41,657 nucleotides of DNA from Escherichia coli (GTDB lineage: Bacteria > Pseudomonadota > Gammaproteobacteria > Enterobacterales > Enterobacteriaceae), in the NCBI RefSeq assembly GCF_003334315.1, contig NZ_QOWR01000044.1. One strand, written 5' to 3'. Positions 2,905 to 40,360 of this stretch are shown piece by piece. Under the pieces are notes generated by a model that ran no database searches, was not told the origin of the DNA, and saw only the letters and a program-made list of their open reading frames with translations. Both the position numbers and the translations under genes were made by a program. Position 1 is the stretch's first letter. Every line of letters starts with the position of its first letter.

Positions 2905-3684
2905 ATGACTGATCTGAAAGCAAGCAGCCTGCGTGCACTGAAATTAATGGACCTGACCACCCTGAATGACGACGACACCGACGAGAAAGTAATTGCTCTG
3001 TGTCATCAGGCCAAAACCCCGGTCGGCAATACCGCCGCTATCTGTATCTATCCTCGCTTTATCCCGATTGCTCGCAAAACGCTGAAAGAGCAGGGCACCC
3101 CGGAAATCCGAATCGCTACGGTAACCAACTTCCCACACGGTAACGATGACATCGAAATCGCGCTGGCAGAAACCCGTGCGGCAATCGCCTACGGTGCAGA
3201 TGAAGTTGACGTTGTGTTCCCGTACCGCGCGCTGATGGCGGGTAACGAGCAGGTTGGTTTTGACCTGGTGAAAGCCTGTAAAGAGGCTTGCGCGGCAGCG
3301 AATGTACTGCTGAAAGTGATCATCGAAACCGGCGAACTGAAAGACGAAGCGCTGATCCGTAAAGCGTCTGAAATCTCCATCAAAGCGGGTGCGGACTTCA
3401 TCAAAACCTCTACCGGTAAAGTGGCTGTGAACGCGACGCCGGAAAGCGCGCGCATCATGATGGAAGTGATCCGTGATATGGGCGTAGAAAAAACCGTTGG
3501 TTTCAAACCGGCGGGCGGCGTGCGTACTGCGGAAGATGCGCAGAAATATCTCGCCATCGCAGATGAACTGTTCGGTGCTGACTGGGCTGATGCGCGTCAC
3601 TACCGCTTTGGTGCTTCCAGCCTGCTGGCAAGCCTGCTGAAAGCGCTGGGCCACGGCGACGGTAAGAGCGCCAGCAGCTACTAA
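2905..3684 (+). CDS. deoC: Deoxyribose-phosphate aldolase
   Basis: 259 aa from the ATG at 2905 ([29 protein letters not shown]...), preceded by AGGAG; the track ORF begins upstream at a TTG. Confidence 0.95.
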
Positions 3685-13230: not shown

Positions 13231-13384
13231 TTGTAGGCCGGAAAAGGCGTTCACGCCGTATCCGGCATTCGGTGCTCAATGCCTGATGCGACGCTTACCG
13301 CGTCTTATCAGGCCTGGAGATTCACAACGTATTGAAATTTCTTGGTTTGTAGGCCGGATAAGGCGTTCACGCCGCATCCGGCAT
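13231..13384. repeat. REP/BIME cluster
   Basis: gtaggccgg...gcatccggca and gcctgatgcgacgct...cttatcaggcc units between the convergent nadR and ettA. Confidence 0.8.
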
Positions 13385-15270: not shown

Positions 15271-17208
15271 GTGGAAAAAGCCAAACAAGTTACCTGGCGG
15301 CTGTTGGCTGCCGGTGTCTGTCTGCTGACGGTCAGCAGCGTGGCGCGAGCCGACTCACTGGATGAGCAGCGTAGCCGTTACGCGCAAATCAAGCAGGCCT
15401 GGGATAATCGACAAATGGATGTGGTCGAACAAATGATGCCTGGACTGAAGGATTATCCGCTTTATCCCTACCTGGAATACCGCCAGATCACCGATGATCT
15501 GATGAATCAACCGGCGGTGACGGTCACTAACTTTGTTCGCGCTAACCCCACGCTTCCTCCCGCTCGCACGCTGCAATCTCGTTTCGTCAATGAACTGGCG
15601 CGGCGTGAAGACTGGCGTGGCTTGTTAGCCTTTAGCCCGGAAAAGCCCGGAACTACCGAAGCGCAATGTAATTACTACTATGCGAAATGGAACACCGGGC
15701 AGAGTGAAGAAGCCTGGCAAGGGGCGAAAGAGCTGTGGCTAACCGGCAAGAGCCAGCCTAACGCCTGTGACAAGTTATTTAGCGTCTGGCGTGCGTCAGG
15801 TAAACAAGATCCGCTGGCTTATTTAGAGCGTATCCGTCTGGCGATGAAAGCGGGTAACACTGGCCTGGTAACAGTGCTGGCAGGGCAGATGCCTGCCGAT
15901 TACCAGACTATCGCCTCGGCAATCATTTCACTGGCGAACAACCCTAATACGGTACTGACCTTCGCGCGTACAACCGGAGCGACCGATTTTACCCGTCAAA
16001 TGGCGGCGGTGGCGTTTGCCAGTGTGGCGCGGCAGGATGCTGAAAATGCACGGCTGATGATCCCGTCGCTTGCCCAGGCGCAGCAGCTTAATGAAGATCA
16101 GATTCAGGAGCTGCGCGATATCGTCGCCTGGCGTTTGATGGGCAACGATGTCACCGACGAGCAGGCGAAATGGCGCGATGACGCCATTATGCGCTCGCAA
16201 TCCACGTCGTTGATTGAACGCCGTGTGCGAATGGCACTTGGCACCGGCGATCGTCGCGGCCTGAATACCTGGCTGGCGCGTCTGCCGATGGAAGCAAAAG
16301 AGAAAGATGAATGGCGTTACTGGCAGGCGGATTTATTGCTGGAACGCGGACGTGAAGCTGAAGCGAAAGAGATTTTGCATCAACTCATGCAACAGCGTGG
16401 TTTCTACCCGATGGTTGCAGCACAACGCATCGGAGAAGAGTATGAGCTGAAGATTGATAAAGCGCCGCAGAATGTTGACAGCGCCCTGACTCAGGGGCCG
16501 GAGATGGCGCGCGTGCGCGAGTTGATGTACTGGAATCTCGATAACACCGCGCGTAGCGAGTGGGCCAATCTGGTGAAGAGCAAGTCAAAAACAGAGCAGG
16601 CTCAACTGGCTCGGTATGCTTTCAATAACCAATGGTGGGATCTTAGCGTTCAGGCAACGATCGCCGGGAAGCTTTGGGATCATCTGGAAGAGCGATTCCC
16701 GCTGGCTTACAACGATCTTTTCAAACGTTACACCAGTGGGAAAGAGATCCCGCAAAGCTATGCGATGGCGATTGCCCGTCAGGAGAGCGCCTGGAATCCG
16801 AAAGTGAAATCACCGGTAGGGGCCAGCGGCCTGATGCAGATTATGCCTGGTACAGCGACCCATACGGTGAAGATGTTCTCTATTCCTGGTTATAGCAGCC
16901 CTGGGCAATTGCTGGATCCGGAAACGAATATCAACATTGGCACCAGTTACCTGCAATATGTTTATCAGCAGTTTGGCAATAACCGTATTTTCTCCTCAGC
17001 AGCTTATAACGCCGGACCTGGACGGGTGCGAACCTGGCTTGGCAACAGCGCCGGGCGTATCGACGCTGTGGCATTTGTCGAGAGTATTCCGTTCTCCGAG
17101 ACGCGCGGTTATGTGAAGAACGTGCTGGCTTATGACGCTTACTACCGCTATTTCATGGGGGATAAACCGACGTTGATGAGCGCCACGGAATGGGGACGTC
17201 GTTACTGA
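15271..17208 (+). CDS. slt: Soluble lytic murein transglycosylase Slt70 (GTG start)
   Basis: 645 aa from the GTG at 15271 (MEKAKQVTWRLLAAGVCLLTVSSVARA... signal peptide); the track ORF starts 10 codons upstream at a TTG. Confidence 0.95.
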   Translation: MEKAKQVTWRLLAAGVCLLTVSSVARADSLDEQRSRYAQIKQAWDNRQMDVVEQMMPGLKDYPLYPYLEYRQITDDLMNQPAVTVTNFVRANPTLPPARTLQSRFVNELARREDWRGLLAFSPEKPGTTEAQCNYYYAKWNTGQSEEAWQGAKELWLTGKSQPNACDKLFSVWRASGKQDPLAYLERIRLAMKAGNTGLVTVLAGQMPADYQTIASAIISLANNPNTVLTFARTTGATDFTRQMAAVAFASVARQDAENARLMIPSLAQAQQLNEDQIQELRDIVAWRLMGNDVTDEQAKWRDDAIMRSQSTSLIERRVRMALGTGDRRGLNTWLARLPMEAKEKDEWRYWQADLLLERGREAEAKEILHQLMQQRGFYPMVAAQRIGEEYELKIDKAPQNVDSALTQGPEMARVRELMYWNLDNTARSEWANLVKSKSKTEQAQLARYAFNNQWWDLSVQATIAGKLWDHLEERFPLAYNDLFKRYTSGKEIPQSYAMAIARQESAWNPKVKSPVGASGLMQIMPGTATHTVKMFSIPGYSSPGQLLDPETNINIGTSYLQYVYQQFGNNRIFSSAAYNAGPGRVRTWLGNSAGRIDAVAFVESIPFSETRGYVKNVLAYDAYYRYFMGDKPTLMSATEWGRRY

Positions 17209-17627: not shown

Positions 17628-17776
17628 TGTAGGCCTGATAAGACGCGGCAGCGTCGCATCAGGCATCGTGCACCGAATGCCGGATGCGGCGTGAACGCCT
17701 TATCCGTCCTACAAATACCCGTAATTTCAATATGTTTGGTAGGCATGATAAGACGCGGCAGCGTCGCATCAGGCGC
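17628..17776. repeat. REP/BIME cluster
   Basis: Two copies of aggc(c/a)tgataagacgcggcagcgtcgcatcaggc and an intervening gccggatgcggcgtgaacgccttatccg unit between trpR and yjjX. Confidence 0.8.
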
Positions 17777-19854: not shown

Positions 19855-20064
19855 AAAATATCCTCATCCTTTCAACAACGAGCACCTGACATCAGGTAAT
19901 TGGATAATAGCATTTTTTGCTGTTTTAGCATTCAGTGTTTTTTTCTTAGTAGAGTATGTTTTAGGTCTTGACGGAAATAAAAGTATTGAGATTTTGTTCT
20001 TAATCAATATGTTATTTACCGTGACGAACTAATTGCTCGTGTAATAGATAAAAATGGTAACAAT

Positions 20065-20538
20065 ATGAAATACAAGCATTTGATCCTGTCTTTAAGCCTG
20101 ATAATGCTGGGGCCATTGGCTCATGCAGAAGAGATTGGTTCGGTCGACACCGTATTTAAAATGATCGGCCCGGATCACAAAATTGTTGTGGAAGCCTTTG
20201 ACGATCCCGATGTGAAAAATGTCACCTGTTATGTGAGCCGGGCGAAAACAGGTGGTATTAAAGGGGGATTGGGTCTGGCGGAAGATACCTCCGATGCGGC
20301 TATTTCTTGTCAGCAAGTCGGGCCGATTGAACTGTCGGATCGTATTAAAAACGGCAAAGCTCAGGGCGAGGTAGTATTCAAAAAACGCACGTCCCTGGTC
20401 TTTAAGTCGTTACAGGTCGTGCGCTTTTATGACGCCAAACGCAACGCGCTCGCTTATCTGGCTTACTCCGACAAAGTTGTAGAAGGTTCGCCGAAAAACG
20501 CGATTAGCGCGGTTCCTGTCATGCCGTGGCGGCAATAA
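20065..20538 (+). CDS. creA: CreA family periplasmic protein
   Basis: 157 aa with signal peptide ([21 protein letters not shown]...). Confidence 0.9.
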
Positions 20539-20550
20539 CAGAGGCGATTT

Positions 20551-21240
20551 ATGCAACGGGAAACGGTCTGGTTAGTGGAAGATGAGCAAGGGATAGCCGA
20601 CACGCTGGTCTACATGTTGCAGCAGGAAGGTTTTGCCGTCGAGGTCTTTGAGCGAGGCTTGCCGGTGCTGGATAAAGCTCGCCAGCAGGTTCCCGACGTC
20701 ATGATTCTCGATGTTGGTTTGCCTGATATCAGCGGCTTTGAATTGTGCCGCCAGTTACTGGCGCTCCATCCGGCGTTACCTGTACTGTTCCTGACGGCCC
20801 GAAGTGAAGAGGTCGATCGCCTGCTTGGGCTGGAAATTGGCGCTGACGACTATGTGGCTAAACCGTTTTCACCCCGCGAAGTGTGCGCCAGGGTGCGCAC
20901 CTTACTGCGTCGGGTGAAGAAGTTCTCGACGCCGTCTCCCGTCATCCGTATTGGTCATTTTGAATTGAATGAACCCGCGGCGCAGATCAGCTGGTTTGAC
21001 ACGCCATTAACGCTGACGCGGTATGAGTTTTTATTGCTGAAGACGTTACTCAAGTCGCCAGGCCGCGTCTGGTCCCGCCAGCAACTGATGGATAGCGTGT
21101 GGGAAGATGCGCAGGACACCTACGATCGCACCGTCGATACCCACATTAAAACGTTGCGTGCCAAGCTGCGCGCCATCAACCCCGATCTTTCACCGATTAA
21201 TACTCATCGCGGCATGGGATATAGCCTGAGGGGCCTGTAA
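20551..21240 (+). CDS. creB: Two-component response regulator CreB (OmpR family)
   Basis: 229 aa (MQRETVWLVEDEQGIADTLVYMLQQEGF...); receiver plus winged-helix domain. Confidence 0.95.
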   Translation: MQRETVWLVEDEQGIADTLVYMLQQEGFAVEVFERGLPVLDKARQQVPDVMILDVGLPDISGFELCRQLLALHPALPVLFLTARSEEVDRLLGLEIGADDYVAKPFSPREVCARVRTLLRRVKKFSTPSPVIRIGHFELNEPAAQISWFDTPLTLTRYEFLLLKTLLKSPGRVWSRQQLMDSVWEDAQDTYDRTVDTHIKTLRAKLRAINPDLSPINTHRGMGYSLRGL

Positions 21241-22664
21241 TGCGTATCGGCATGCGGTTGCTGCTGGGCTATTTTTTACTGGTGGCGGTGGCGGCCTGGT
21301 TCGTACTGGCTATTTTTGTCAAAGAAGTTAAACCGGGCGTGCGAAGAGCAACGGAGGGGACGTTAATCGATACCGCAACGTTGCTGGCGGAGCTGGCGCG
21401 TCCCGATTTGCTCTCTGGGGACCCAACGCATGGGCAACTGGCGCAGGCGTTTAATCAGCTACAACATCGCCCGTTTCGCGCCAATATCGGTGGCATTAAC
21501 AAAGTGCGCAATGAATATCATGTCTATATGACCGATTCGCAGGGTAAAGTATTGTTCGATTCGGCAAATAAAGCCGTTGGGCAGGATTATTCGCGCTGGA
21601 ATGACGTCTGGCTAACGTTGCGTGGTCAGTATGGTGCGCGCAGCACGTTGCAAAATCCTGCCGATCCCGAAAGTTCGGTGATGTATGTTGCCGCGCCGAT
21701 TATGGACGGCTCGCGGCTTATTGGCGTTTTGAGCGTAGGCAAACCGAACGCGGCGATGGCTCCGGTCATTAAGCGTAGCGAGCGGCGAATTTTATGGGCC
21801 AGCGCCATTTTGCTGGGGATTGCACTGGTGATTGGCGCAGGCATGGTTTGGTGGATCAACCGCTCCATTGCCCGGCTCACTCGCTATGCCGATTCCGTCA
21901 CTGACAATAAGCCCGTTCCTCTTCCTGAACTCGGCAGTAGCGAGTTGCGTAAGCTTGCGCAGGCGCTGGAAAGTATGCGCGTGAAGCTGGAAGGGAAAAA
22001 CTATATTGAGCAGTATGTTTATGCGTTAACCCATGAGCTAAAAAGCCCACTGGCGGCGATTCGTGGCGCGGCGGAAATTTTACGCGAAGGTCCGCCACCG
22101 GAAGTGGTGGCTCGTTTTACCGACAACATTCTGACGCAAAATGCGCGTATGCAGGCATTGGTAGAAACGTTACTACGCCAGGCAAGACTGGAGAATCGTC
22201 AGGAAGTCGTTCTGACTGTTGTTGATGTGGCGGCATTATTTCGCCGCGTCAGCGAAGCGCGCACCGTGCAGTTGGCAGAAAAAAACATCACTCTACATGT
22301 TATGCCCACTGAGGTTAATGTTGCTGCTGAACCGGCGTTACTGGAGCAGGCGCTGGGGAATTTACTGGATAACGCCATCGATTTTACCCCCGAGAGCGGT
22401 CGCATAACGCTAAGCGCCGAAGTGGATCAGGAACACGTCGCCCTTAAGGTGCTGGATACCGGTAGTGGTATTCCTGACTACGCGCTGTCACGTATTTTTG
22501 AACGCTTTTACTCTTTGCCGCGTGCAAATGGGCAAAAAAGCAGCGGTCTGGGGTTGGCGTTCGTCAGTGAGGTCGCCCGTTTGTTTAACGGCGAAGTCAC
22601 GCTGCGCAACGTGCAGGAAGGTGGCGTGCTGGCCTCGCTTCGACTTCACCGTCACTTCACATAG
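21240..22664 (+). CDS. creC: Sensor histidine kinase CreC
   Basis: 474 aa; H-box LTHELKSPLAAIRG; start overlaps the creB stop by 1 nt (taATG), suggesting translational coupling. Confidence 0.95.
   Translation: MRIGMRLLLGYFLLVAVAAWFVLAIFVKEVKPGVRRATEGTLIDTATLLAELARPDLLSGDPTHGQLAQAFNQLQHRPFRANIGGINKVRNEYHVYMTDSQGKVLFDSANKAVGQDYSRWNDVWLTLRGQYGARSTLQNPADPESSVMYVAAPIMDGSRLIGVLSVGKPNAAMAPVIKRSERRILWASAILLGIALVIGAGMVWWINRSIARLTRYADSVTDNKPVPLPELGSSELRKLAQALESMRVKLEGKNYIEQYVYALTHELKSPLAAIRGAAEILREGPPPEVVARFTDNILTQNARMQALVETLLRQARLENRQEVVLTVVDVAALFRRVSEARTVQLAEKNITLHVMPTEVNVAAEPALLEQALGNLLDNAIDFTPESGRITLSAEVDQEHVALKVLDTGSGIPDYALSRIFERFYSLPRANGQKSSGLGLAFVSEVARLFNGEVTLRNVQEGGVLASLRLHRHFT
22645..22660 (+). 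promoter_or_regulatory. cre tag (candidate CreB binding site) upstream of creD
   Basis: Perfect TTCAC-N6-TTCAC direct repeat (ttcaccgtcacttcac) inside the last codons of creC, 62 bp upstream of the creD ATG. Confidence 0.55.
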
Positions 22665-22721
22665 CTTCAAATTCTTCCCACATAGCCTTCGTATCCTGCT
22701 GCCATTGCAAAGGAGAAGACT

Positions 22722-24074
22722 ATGTTGAAATCCCCCCTGTTCTGGAAAATGACCACCTTGTTTGGTGCAGTATTGCTGTTGTTGATTCCGATAATGCTGA
22801 TTCGGCAAGTGATTGTCGAACGTGCCGATTACCGTAGCGATGTGGAAGATGCGATTCGCCAAAGTACCAGCGGGCCGCAAAAACTCGTTGGGCCGCTTAT
22901 CGCTATTCCTGTGACCGAGCTTTATACGGTGCAGGAAGAGGATAAAACCGTGGAGCGGAAACGAAGTTTTATCCATTTTTGGTTACCTGAGTCATTGATG
23001 GTTGATGGCAATCAGAACGTGGAAGAACGCAAGATAGGGATTTATACCGGTCAGGTCTGGCACAGTGATTTAACGCTAAAAGCCGATTTCGATGTTTCGC
23101 GTCTTAGCGAGCTCAACGCGCCAAATATCATCTTAGGCAAGCCCTTTATTGTGATTAGCGTCGGGGATGCGCGTGGTATTGGTGTGGTGAAAGCGCCTGA
23201 AGTTAACGGAACGGCGCTGACCATTGAACCCGGCACCGGGTTAGAGCAAGGCGGGCAGGGCGTGCATATCCCTTTACCCGAAGGGGACTGGCGGAAGCAG
23301 AACCTGAAGCTGAATATGGCCCTGAATTTAAGCGGTACCGGCGATCTTTCTGTGGTGCCTGCCGGGCGTAATAGCGAAATGACCTTAACCAGCAACTGGC
23401 CGCATCCCAGTTTTTTAGGTGATTTTTTGCCAGCCAAACGGGAAGTTAGCGAGTCAGGTTTTCAGGCGCAATGGCAAAGCAGCTGGTTTGCTAATAATCT
23501 CGGTGAGCGTTTTGCTTCAGGCAATGATACCGGCTGGGAAAACTTCCCCGCGTTTAGCGTCGCAGTGACGACGCCAGCCGATCAATACCAATTAACTGAC
23601 CGGGCGACTAAGTACGCTATTCTGCTGATTGCGCTGACTTTTATGGCGTTCTTTGTTTTTGAAACGCTCACCGCGCAACGTTTACACCCAATGCAATATT
23701 TACTGGTGGGGCTTTCATTAGTGATGTTTTATTTGCTCTTGCTGGCGCTTTCTGAACATACCGGTTTTACCGGGGCATGGATAATCGCCAGTCTGATTGG
23801 GGCGTTAATGAACGGTATTTATTTGCAGGCGGTATTGAAAGGCTGGCGCAACAGCATGTTGTTTACCCTCGCGCTGTTGTTGCTGGATGGTGTGATGTGG
23901 GGACTACTCAACTCTGCCGATAGCGCGCTGTTGTTGGGAACCAGTGTGCTGGTGGTGGCGCTGGCCGGAATGATGTTTGTGACCCGTAATATCGACTGGT
24001 ATGCGTTTTCACTGCCGAAAATGAAAGCCAATAAAGAAGTTACAACGGACGATGAATTACGTATCTGGAAATAA
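22722..24074 (+). CDS. creD: Inner membrane protein CreD
   Basis: 450 aa (MLKSPLFWKMTTLFGAVLLLLIPIMLIRQV...); multiple transmembrane segments. Confidence 0.95.
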   Translation: MLKSPLFWKMTTLFGAVLLLLIPIMLIRQVIVERADYRSDVEDAIRQSTSGPQKLVGPLIAIPVTELYTVQEEDKTVERKRSFIHFWLPESLMVDGNQNVEERKIGIYTGQVWHSDLTLKADFDVSRLSELNAPNIILGKPFIVISVGDARGIGVVKAPEVNGTALTIEPGTGLEQGGQGVHIPLPEGDWRKQNLKLNMALNLSGTGDLSVVPAGRNSEMTLTSNWPHPSFLGDFLPAKREVSESGFQAQWQSSWFANNLGERFASGNDTGWENFPAFSVAVTTPADQYQLTDRATKYAILLIALTFMAFFVFETLTAQRLHPMQYLLVGLSLVMFYLLLLALSEHTGFTGAWIIASLIGALMNGIYLQAVLKGWRNSMLFTLALLLLDGVMWGLLNSADSALLLGTSVLVVALAGMMFVTRNIDWYAFSLPKMKANKEVTTDDELRIWK

Positions 24075-24131: not shown

Positions 24132-24848
24132 TTAATCTTCCAGATCACCGCAGAAGCGATAACCTTCACCGTGAATGGTGGCGATGATTTCCGGCGTATC
24201 CGGCGTAGATTCGAAATGTTTACGAATACGGCGGATCGTCACGTCTACAGTACGGTCGTGCGGTTTCAGCTCACGGCCGGTCATTTTCTTCAGCAGTTCA
24301 GCACGAGACTGAATTTTGCCTGGGTTTTCACAGAAGTGAAGCATGGCGCGGAACTCGCTGCGCGGCAGCTTGTACTGCTCGCCATCAGGGCCGATCAACG
24401 AACGGCTGTTGATGTCCAGTTCCCAACCATTGAACTTGTAGCTTTCAACGCTACGACGTTCTTCGCTGACAGTACCCAGATTCATGGTACGGGACAGCAG
24501 GTTGCGTGCACGAATCGTCAGTTCACGCGGGTTGAACGGTTTGGTGATGTAGTCATCTGCACCGATTTCGAGGCCGAGAATTTTATCGACTTCGTTGTCA
24601 CGGCCAGTCAGGAACATCAACGCAACATTCGCCTGCTCGCGCAGTTCACGCGCTAACAGAAGACCGTTCTTACCCGGCAGATTGATATCCATGATCACCA
24701 GGTTGATGTCATATTCAGAGAGGATCTGATGCATTTCCGCGCCATCTGTCGCTTCGAAAACATCATAGCCTTCCGCTTCGAAAATACTTTTCAACGTGTT
24801 GCGTGTTACCAACTCGTCTTCAACGATAAGAATGTGCGGGGTCTGCAT
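24132..24848 (-). CDS. arcA: Aerobic respiration control response regulator ArcA
   Basis: 238 aa ([70 protein letters not shown]...). Confidence 0.97.
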
Positions 24849-26380: not shown

Positions 26381-26449
<69 letters not shown>

Positions 26450-26470
26450 CGCGTACAGGAAACACAGAAA

Positions 26471-26503
26471 AAAGCCCGCACCTGACAGTGCGGGCTTTTT
26501 TTT
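26471..26503 (+). terminator. thr operon attenuator (rho-independent terminator)
   Basis: gcccgca/tgcgggc stem followed by 8 consecutive T. Confidence 0.9.
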
Positions 26504-26529
26504 CGACCAAAGGTAACGAGGTAACAACC

Positions 26530-31744: not shown

Positions 31745-31866
31745 TCCGGCATTCAGCGCCTGATGCGACGCTGGCGCGTCTTATCAGGCCTACGTGAATT
31801 CTGCAATATATTGAATCTGCATGCTTTTGTAGGCCGGATAAGGCGTTCACGCCGCATCCGGCATTG
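31745..31866. repeat. REP/BIME pair
   Basis: gcctgatgcgacgctggcgcgtcttatcaggcctac and gtaggccggataaggcgttcacgccgcatccggca between the convergent yaaX and yaaA. Confidence 0.8.
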
Positions 31867-40272: not shown

Positions 40273-40300
40273 TCGCCCTATAAACGGGTAATTATACTGA

Positions 40301-40333
40301 CACGGGCGAAGGGGAATTTCCTCTCCGCCCGTG
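40301..40333 (+). other. Stem-loop in the dnaK-dnaJ intergenic region
   Basis: cacgggcg...cgcccgtg inverted repeat with a long loop, no T-run; candidate mRNA processing or attenuation element within the dnaKJ transcript. Confidence 0.5.
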
Positions 40334-40360
40334 CATTCATCTAGGGGCAATTTAAAAAAG

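Follow-up and report, generated by a model that had tools for sequence, protein, structure and literature searches.

What does a perfect cre tag do when it is written into the last codons of a sensor kinase gene? The DNA analysed here, called the window below, is a stretch of 41,657 nucleotides from Escherichia coli that contains the creABCD-arcA locus (Table 1); over 4.9 kb the sequence matches, at 100% identity, E. coli chromosomes that carry those RefSeq names. The tag lies within the final six sense codons of creC (22644-22661, L-H-R-H-F-T), the CreC tail reading LASLRLHRHFT before the stop; it starts 77 bp 5' of the creD ATG and ends 61-62 nt before it. An earlier note on this DNA had pointed to an exact match to the CreB consensus inside the end of creC, with the creC stop and then creD downstream. 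The open reading frames confirm this arrangement, and the match is the sole perfect one in the window.

Table 1. Features of the cre locus in the window, and cre tags at other genes of K-12.
Feature	Position	Strand	Basis and details
creA	20065-20538		ORF list; RefSeq name from identical E. coli stretch
creB, OmpR/PhoB-family response regulator recognising the tag	20551-21240	+	ORF, RefSeq name
creC, sensor histidine kinase	21240-22664	+	ORF; TAG stop 22662-22664; RefSeq name
Perfect cre tag TTCACCGTCACTTCAC, distal CreB box of the proposed layout	22645-22660	+	half-sites TTCAC 22645-22649, 22656-22660
Putative proximal degenerate CreB box	22666-22681	+	half-sites TTCAA 22666-22670, CCCAC 22677-22681
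Predicted creD -10 hexamer TATCCT	22692-22697	+	conserved TAnnnT; putative start near A22704
creD Shine-Dalgarno AGGAG	22711-22715	+	sequence; kept in enterobacterial alignment
creD, target gene, inner-membrane cell-envelope integrity protein	22722-24074	+	ORF, RefSeq name, Pfam PF06123
arcA	24132-24848	-	ORF; RefSeq name
talA tag (K-12)	276 bp before ATG		
ackA tag (K-12)	335 bp before ATG		
yicR tag (K-12)	upstream of gene		
malE tag (K-12)	27 bp before ATG		fits repression

The 4.9-kb cre stretch was found in 5,425 of 5,426 complete E. coli genomes; for the 111-bp creC-creD junction, 5,341 of 5,424 genomes show an identity of 99% or more. Among the E. coli matches to the cre locus, three are to records classed as plasmids. 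In E. coli NZ_AP027716.1 (hit H20) the junction match ends at query base 95 with no creD annotated beneath, suggesting that the start of creD is disrupted in this genome. Elsewhere in the window, the naRNA4 (CssrE) repeat family is represented by four copies (44-122, 145-223 and 13236-13314 on the + strand, 17632-17709 on the - strand), two of them in tandem at its very beginning. Rfam matches to the threonine operon leader (26385-26504, +), tpke11 (40283-40360, +) and ES036 (31786-31828, -) fit a thr operon region lying downstream of arcA.

The regulator and its site have been described before. According to PMC4689548, which refers to Avison 2001 and Cariss 2008, activated CreB or BlrA binds upstream of creD at a cre/blr tag, TTCACN6TTCAC, that is critical for this binding, and PMC3660660 credits the definition of the tag in E. 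coli to Avison et al. 2001. PMC3962086 states that CreB binds the tag in vitro and that the regulon includes ackA-pta, talA and creD, malE being repressed. In E. coli and P. aeruginosa CreBC regulates creD positively, as does BlrAB in Aeromonas, and creD expression is an indicator of CreBC activation (PMC4689548). In a CreC-activated mutant six genes, creD among them, rise more than 10-fold and require CreB for this rise (bioRxiv 615310). Under colicin M creD is induced together with cbrB, cbrA and cbrC (log2 values of 5.66 for creD, then 5.2, 4.3 and 3.77), and creA, creB and creC are absent from the list of induced genes of that study while creD is up about 50-fold. The site is an already published CreB site at creD, known since 2001, and its finding here is a rediscovery.

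We hold it to be very probable that the site is this published cre tag of the creD promoter, at which bound CreB~P activates a sigma-70 promoter transcribing creD. The proposal of the earlier note that a CreB-dependent promoter with its operator in the last codons of creC drives creD agrees with the literature and with the comparative data below. Its term autoregulation has to be dropped, since creD is a target and not a regulator and no tag precedes creA-creB-creC; upstream of creA (19855-20064) there was none with zero or one mismatch. In S. maltophilia also, creBC is reported as not autoregulated (PMC4689548). Being served by a promoter of its own, creD would be inducible independently of creABC.

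The sign of this regulation might nevertheless be questioned, because CreBC regulates creD negatively in S. maltophilia despite a tag-like sequence (PMC4689548), and the tag is thus no guarantee of activation in every species. In E. coli the tag could then be a CreB-dependent block, that is, a repressor site acting on read-through from the creA promoter into creD. Such read-through is plausible, as no terminator was called between creC and creD, and malE, which has its tag 27 bp upstream of the ATG, is repressed (PMC3962086). This explanation is highly unlikely in view of the more than 10-fold, CreB-requiring rise of creD upon CreC activation in E. coli and of the positive regulation reported in E. 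coli, Aeromonas and P. aeruginosa, both cited above; moreover, a TAnnnT hexamer conserved at a fixed distance downstream of the tag indicates a promoter.

A tag read both as DNA and as codons could be conserved for either reason, and the close relatives allow the two to be separated. A CreD search keeping one genome per species yielded 38 enterobacterial loci with 60-97% CreD identity, from Escherichia, Citrobacter, Klebsiella, Raoultella, Enterobacter, Lelliottia, Leclercia, Trabulsiella, Yokenella, Superficieibacter and Silvania. Exactly one perfect tag was present in all 37 loci that contain the junction, 76-80 bp before the creD ATG and with no other tag, and Salmonella and E. fergusonii had the same single tag before creD. 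The Salmonella creB orthologue (locus L039) encodes a product with both PF00072 and PF00486. Across the 38 aligned sequences together with Salmonella and E. fergusonii (40 loci), the tag was invariant, wobble included.

To place this invariance against its background, the final 540 nt of creC, corresponding to 180 third-codon positions, were aligned. The wobble sites of creC had a mean top-base frequency of 0.58 and 8 of the 180 were invariant; six of these eight belong to the last six codons (22646-22661), compared with 2/174 elsewhere (hypergeometric P = 6.4e-10). In the spacer codons, positions 1 and 2 vary, giving the residues RH, RP, AH, RR, RY and PH, and the third bases T22652 and C22655 stay constant. 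A third base that is fixed while the residue changes is the reverse of what protein-level selection produces, which argues for selection on the DNA. As judged from these alignments, the tag is selected as DNA, beyond coding constraint.

It could be argued that the tag bases are conserved for a C-terminal peptide of CreC, LHxxFT, needed by the kinase, the resemblance to a CreB site being secondary, since all enterobacterial CreC tails share the residues L, H, F and T. The probability of this is very small. Third positions are fixed too (CTT among the six Leu codons, CAC, TTC, ACA) although other creC wobble sites average 0.58, with the P value given above, and the two spacer codons change residue but keep their third base. 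Pfam matches to HAMP, HisKA and HATPase_c were obtained for CreC, and the last of them stops at residue 469 of 474, which places the tag in a short tail beyond the catalytic domain. Furthermore, in distant lineages the kinase gene stops before the tag, or the same motif precedes a creD gene with no kinase gene called next to it on the fetched stretch, as described below.

A plain homologue search listed only close enterobacterial CreD proteins; distant homologues came from a 50%-identity representative search, and ten of their contexts were fetched. A perfect tag was found in five of the six distant loci fetched first and in L050, and only degenerate tags in L047-L049. L050 has the order creA-creB-creC-creD with 58% CreD identity, and its creC stop, a TGA, ends one base before the tag. 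In L041 and L046, distant loci with a response regulator gene, a histidine kinase gene and creD, the tag is intergenic, its start lying 10 and 12 nt, respectively, beyond the kinase stop. In L042, L043 and L044 no two-component genes were called beside creD on the fetched stretch, which for L043 included just 152 bp upstream of creD, and a single perfect tag stands 81-85 bp upstream of each creD ATG (2420-2435, 68-83 and 2418-2433, respectively), followed by the same downstream layout. These three loci suggest that creD stays under CreB-type control even when it is unlinked from creBC. In L045 there was no tag before the distant creD homologue (creD start 2189). The ATG of this creD overlaps the stop of the hexapeptide-repeat gene before it, in a position downstream of rplM-rpsI, so that this creD is probably transcribed together with its neighbour and lacks CreB control.

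Since distant lineages carry an intergenic tag, its position inside creC is specific to core Enterobacteriaceae. The overlap comes from a shift of the creC stop codon, the frame running 18 nt further to a stop within the conserved ATAR after the tag. The overlap with creC is incidental, and the last five CreC residues are translated regulatory DNA.

Counting the motif gives a first impression that is less decisive. On both strands of the window, TTCACN6TTCAC has one perfect match compared with 0.09 expected, and at least one perfect tag arose in 9 of 100 shuffles of the window; by count, a single match in one window is weakly significant. It could accordingly be asked whether these 16 bases match the 10-base consensus by chance, given that about 9 random matches per 4.6-Mb genome are to be expected (2 x 4.64e6 / 4^10). 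The recurrence of the tag at the same position before creD across lineages, with the distant L045 as the locus without it, speaks against this, and so does the larger scan. In 408,650 bases, made up of 74 kb of K-12 plus all loci fetched, there were 52 perfect tags versus a random expectation of 0.78. All 52 precede creD or reported cre-regulon genes, from which we conclude that tag placement is not due to chance, an explanation that is left with a minimal probability. The scan of about 409 kb contained no perfect tag outside regulon promoters, and the earlier note's own counter-argument, that the motif might be equally frequent at random in coding DNA, was not borne out. One-mismatch tags occur at chance frequency, with four in the window including the real tag compared with 2.9 expected; the other three are all on the - strand (3416-3431, 16352-16367 and 16573-16588).

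Conservation extends beyond the tag. In the enterobacterial alignment CTTCAA (22665-22670) is invariant, CCACATAGC (22678-22686) is conserved and its CCAC is nearly invariant. Between the tag and a TAnnnT hexamer there are zero indels in all enterics aligned, indels being found only downstream of TAnnnT. In E. coli four half-sites can be read, TTCAC at 22645, TTCAC at 22656, TTCAA at 22666 and CCCAC at 22677, with spacings of 11, 10 and 11. In ten of ten lineage representatives, NNCAN half-sites stand at offsets 0, 11, 21/22 and 32/33 from the tag start, the register (offset 21 or 22) and the anchors of L047-L049 having been picked by eye and thus post hoc. In all ten the fourth half-site is followed, after exactly 10 bp, by a hexamer with A2 and T6. 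The periodic half-site pattern has a background rate of 1e-4 per position in the same loci, and the four-half-site layout spans E. coli to CreD homologues of 33-46% identity. In the window the proximal pair ends at 22681 and TATCCT begins at 22692, leaving a 10-bp gap. The claim of an operator within creC holds in part: the perfect tag is inside creC, but the putative proximal pair and the predicted -10 hexamer are intergenic.

A generic promoter and terminator scan of 22300-22900 called no + strand promoter, no terminator and no -35/-10 pair. This consensus scan missed TATCCT for want of a -35 hexamer, the absence of which is to be expected where a promoter depends on an activator. Two other hexamers were considered as the -10 of creD and rejected: ATTCTT (22671-22676), 10 bp after the perfect tag, is without the TAnnnT signature and is not conserved, and CATAGC (22681-22686) is likewise without the signature. 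The sequence CACATAGC has two copies 21 bp apart, at 22658-22665 and 22679-22686. After the fourth half-site comes an ATAGC that is kept across Enterobacteriaceae as part of the conserved block 22678-22686, and not in distant lineages. The half-site model leaves this conservation unexplained; it could reflect the site of another factor, or limited divergence.

That the conserved block is an RNA element of the creC-creD transcript (processing, stability or translational coupling) can be set aside as having almost no chance of being right, for although the region would be transcribed in any creABCD read-through mRNA, 22630-22725 is predicted to fold no better than shuffled sequence (z = -0.74), with the tag unpaired, the block has no Rfam match, and direct repeats of 11-bp period are a signature of DNA binding and not of a hairpin.

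Perfect tags before cbrA, cbrB, talA, ackA, yicR/radC and malE in K-12 provide a comparison for the creD promoter. Those directly before cbrA and cbrB are the only two in a K-12 segment of 45 kb, and at these genes the TAnnnT hexamers TAGTCT and TAAATT stand exactly 10 bp after the perfect tag. One perfect tag each was found for talA, ackA, yicR and malE too, at different positions (Table 1). At creD, the proximal pair occupies the place that the perfect tag has at cbrA and cbrB, and the perfect tag is 21 bp, about two helical turns, further upstream. Four of the K-12 tags (9316 and 37444 of L051, 4391 of L053 and 136 of L055) adjoin other genes. The distance is 4 bp from the yieH stop to the start of the cbrB tag, and 6 bp from the cbrA tag to the start codon of yidR; the tags of ackA and talA begin 3 and 13 bp from the starts of yfbV and maeB, respectively. 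The tags assigned to talA and ackA may thus be those of the divergent maeB and yfbV just as much.

Cariss et al. (2008) reportedly found both repeats of the tag to be required in vivo. In the mechanism that we propose, CreB~P, with the winged helix of the OmpR/PhoB family, would bind head-to-tail on the two TTCAC repeats, one helical turn apart, and would activate a sigma-70 promoter that has no -35 element and the predicted -10 hexamer TATCCT. A CreB dimer on the distal, high-affinity pair might help a second dimer onto the degenerate proximal pair. The latter would stand in place of the -35 element, and the dimer there may contact RNA polymerase, with transcription starting near A22704. The tag would then be the distal half of an operator of about 37 bp (22645-22681) for two tandem CreB dimers, with the proximal pair TTCAA-N6-CCCAC in the pho-box position; from the sequence comparisons we put this forward tentatively, at somewhat below even chances. 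Neither the four-half-site layout nor the codon-level analysis was found in the literature to 2026, in which the 16-bp tag only is described, Avison 2001 and Cariss 2008 being outside this search.

The two-box, pho-box-like layout and the lineage-specific creC overlap are the only possibly new elements of this work. If the layout is true, it would account for creD being the regulon member with the strongest induction, and it would supply a rule of geometry by which activating tags could be told from incidental ones: a tag or degenerate pair ending 10 bp before TAnnnT separates the strongly activated creD, cbrA and cbrB from talA, ackA, yicR and malE. The creC overlap adds a clean case of regulatory DNA dictating the final codons of a gene, with codon-position conservation reversed, and one that is lineage-specific and arises from a stop-codon shift. 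The CreBC/BlrAB pathway is linked to beta-lactam tolerance and colicin resistance. Since creD expression is the standard read-out of this pathway in the field, a correct annotation of the creD operator is useful.

Compared with known systems, the site is not an analogue of the cre/blr tag known from the Cre regulon of E. coli (Avison et al. 2001, J Biol Chem 276:26955; Cariss et al. 2008, J Bacteriol 190:3930) but the same site, with identical consensus, gene (creD) and regulator (CreB). In the blrD/creD promoters of Aeromonas, P. aeruginosa and S. maltophilia, beside two-component genes, creD/blrD is preceded at about 65-80 bp by a tag or a sequence resembling one (PMC4689548), and the distant loci fetched in this study have the same layout. 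In those lineages, unlike in the window, the tag is intergenic, in S. maltophilia within an 81-bp spacer (PMC4689548). A further likeness is to the Pho box promoters of PhoB such as pstS, where, as seems to be the case at creD, direct repeats of 11-bp period form a box that lies 10 bp before the -10 and replaces the -35. Pho boxes are bound head-to-tail by a regulator of the OmpR/PhoB family, and pstS has tandem boxes extending upstream; CreC, formerly PhoM, is itself a kinase known for cross-talk to PhoB. The half-sites differ, TTCAC at creD against CTGTCAT as the unit of the Pho box, and at creD the perfect box would be the distal one; CreB at the proximal box may contact sigma-70 region 4 and so recruit RNA polymerase. 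Nevertheless, with repeats about one helical turn apart, a 10-bp gap to the predicted -10 and no -35 consensus, the creD promoter has a pho-box-like geometry.
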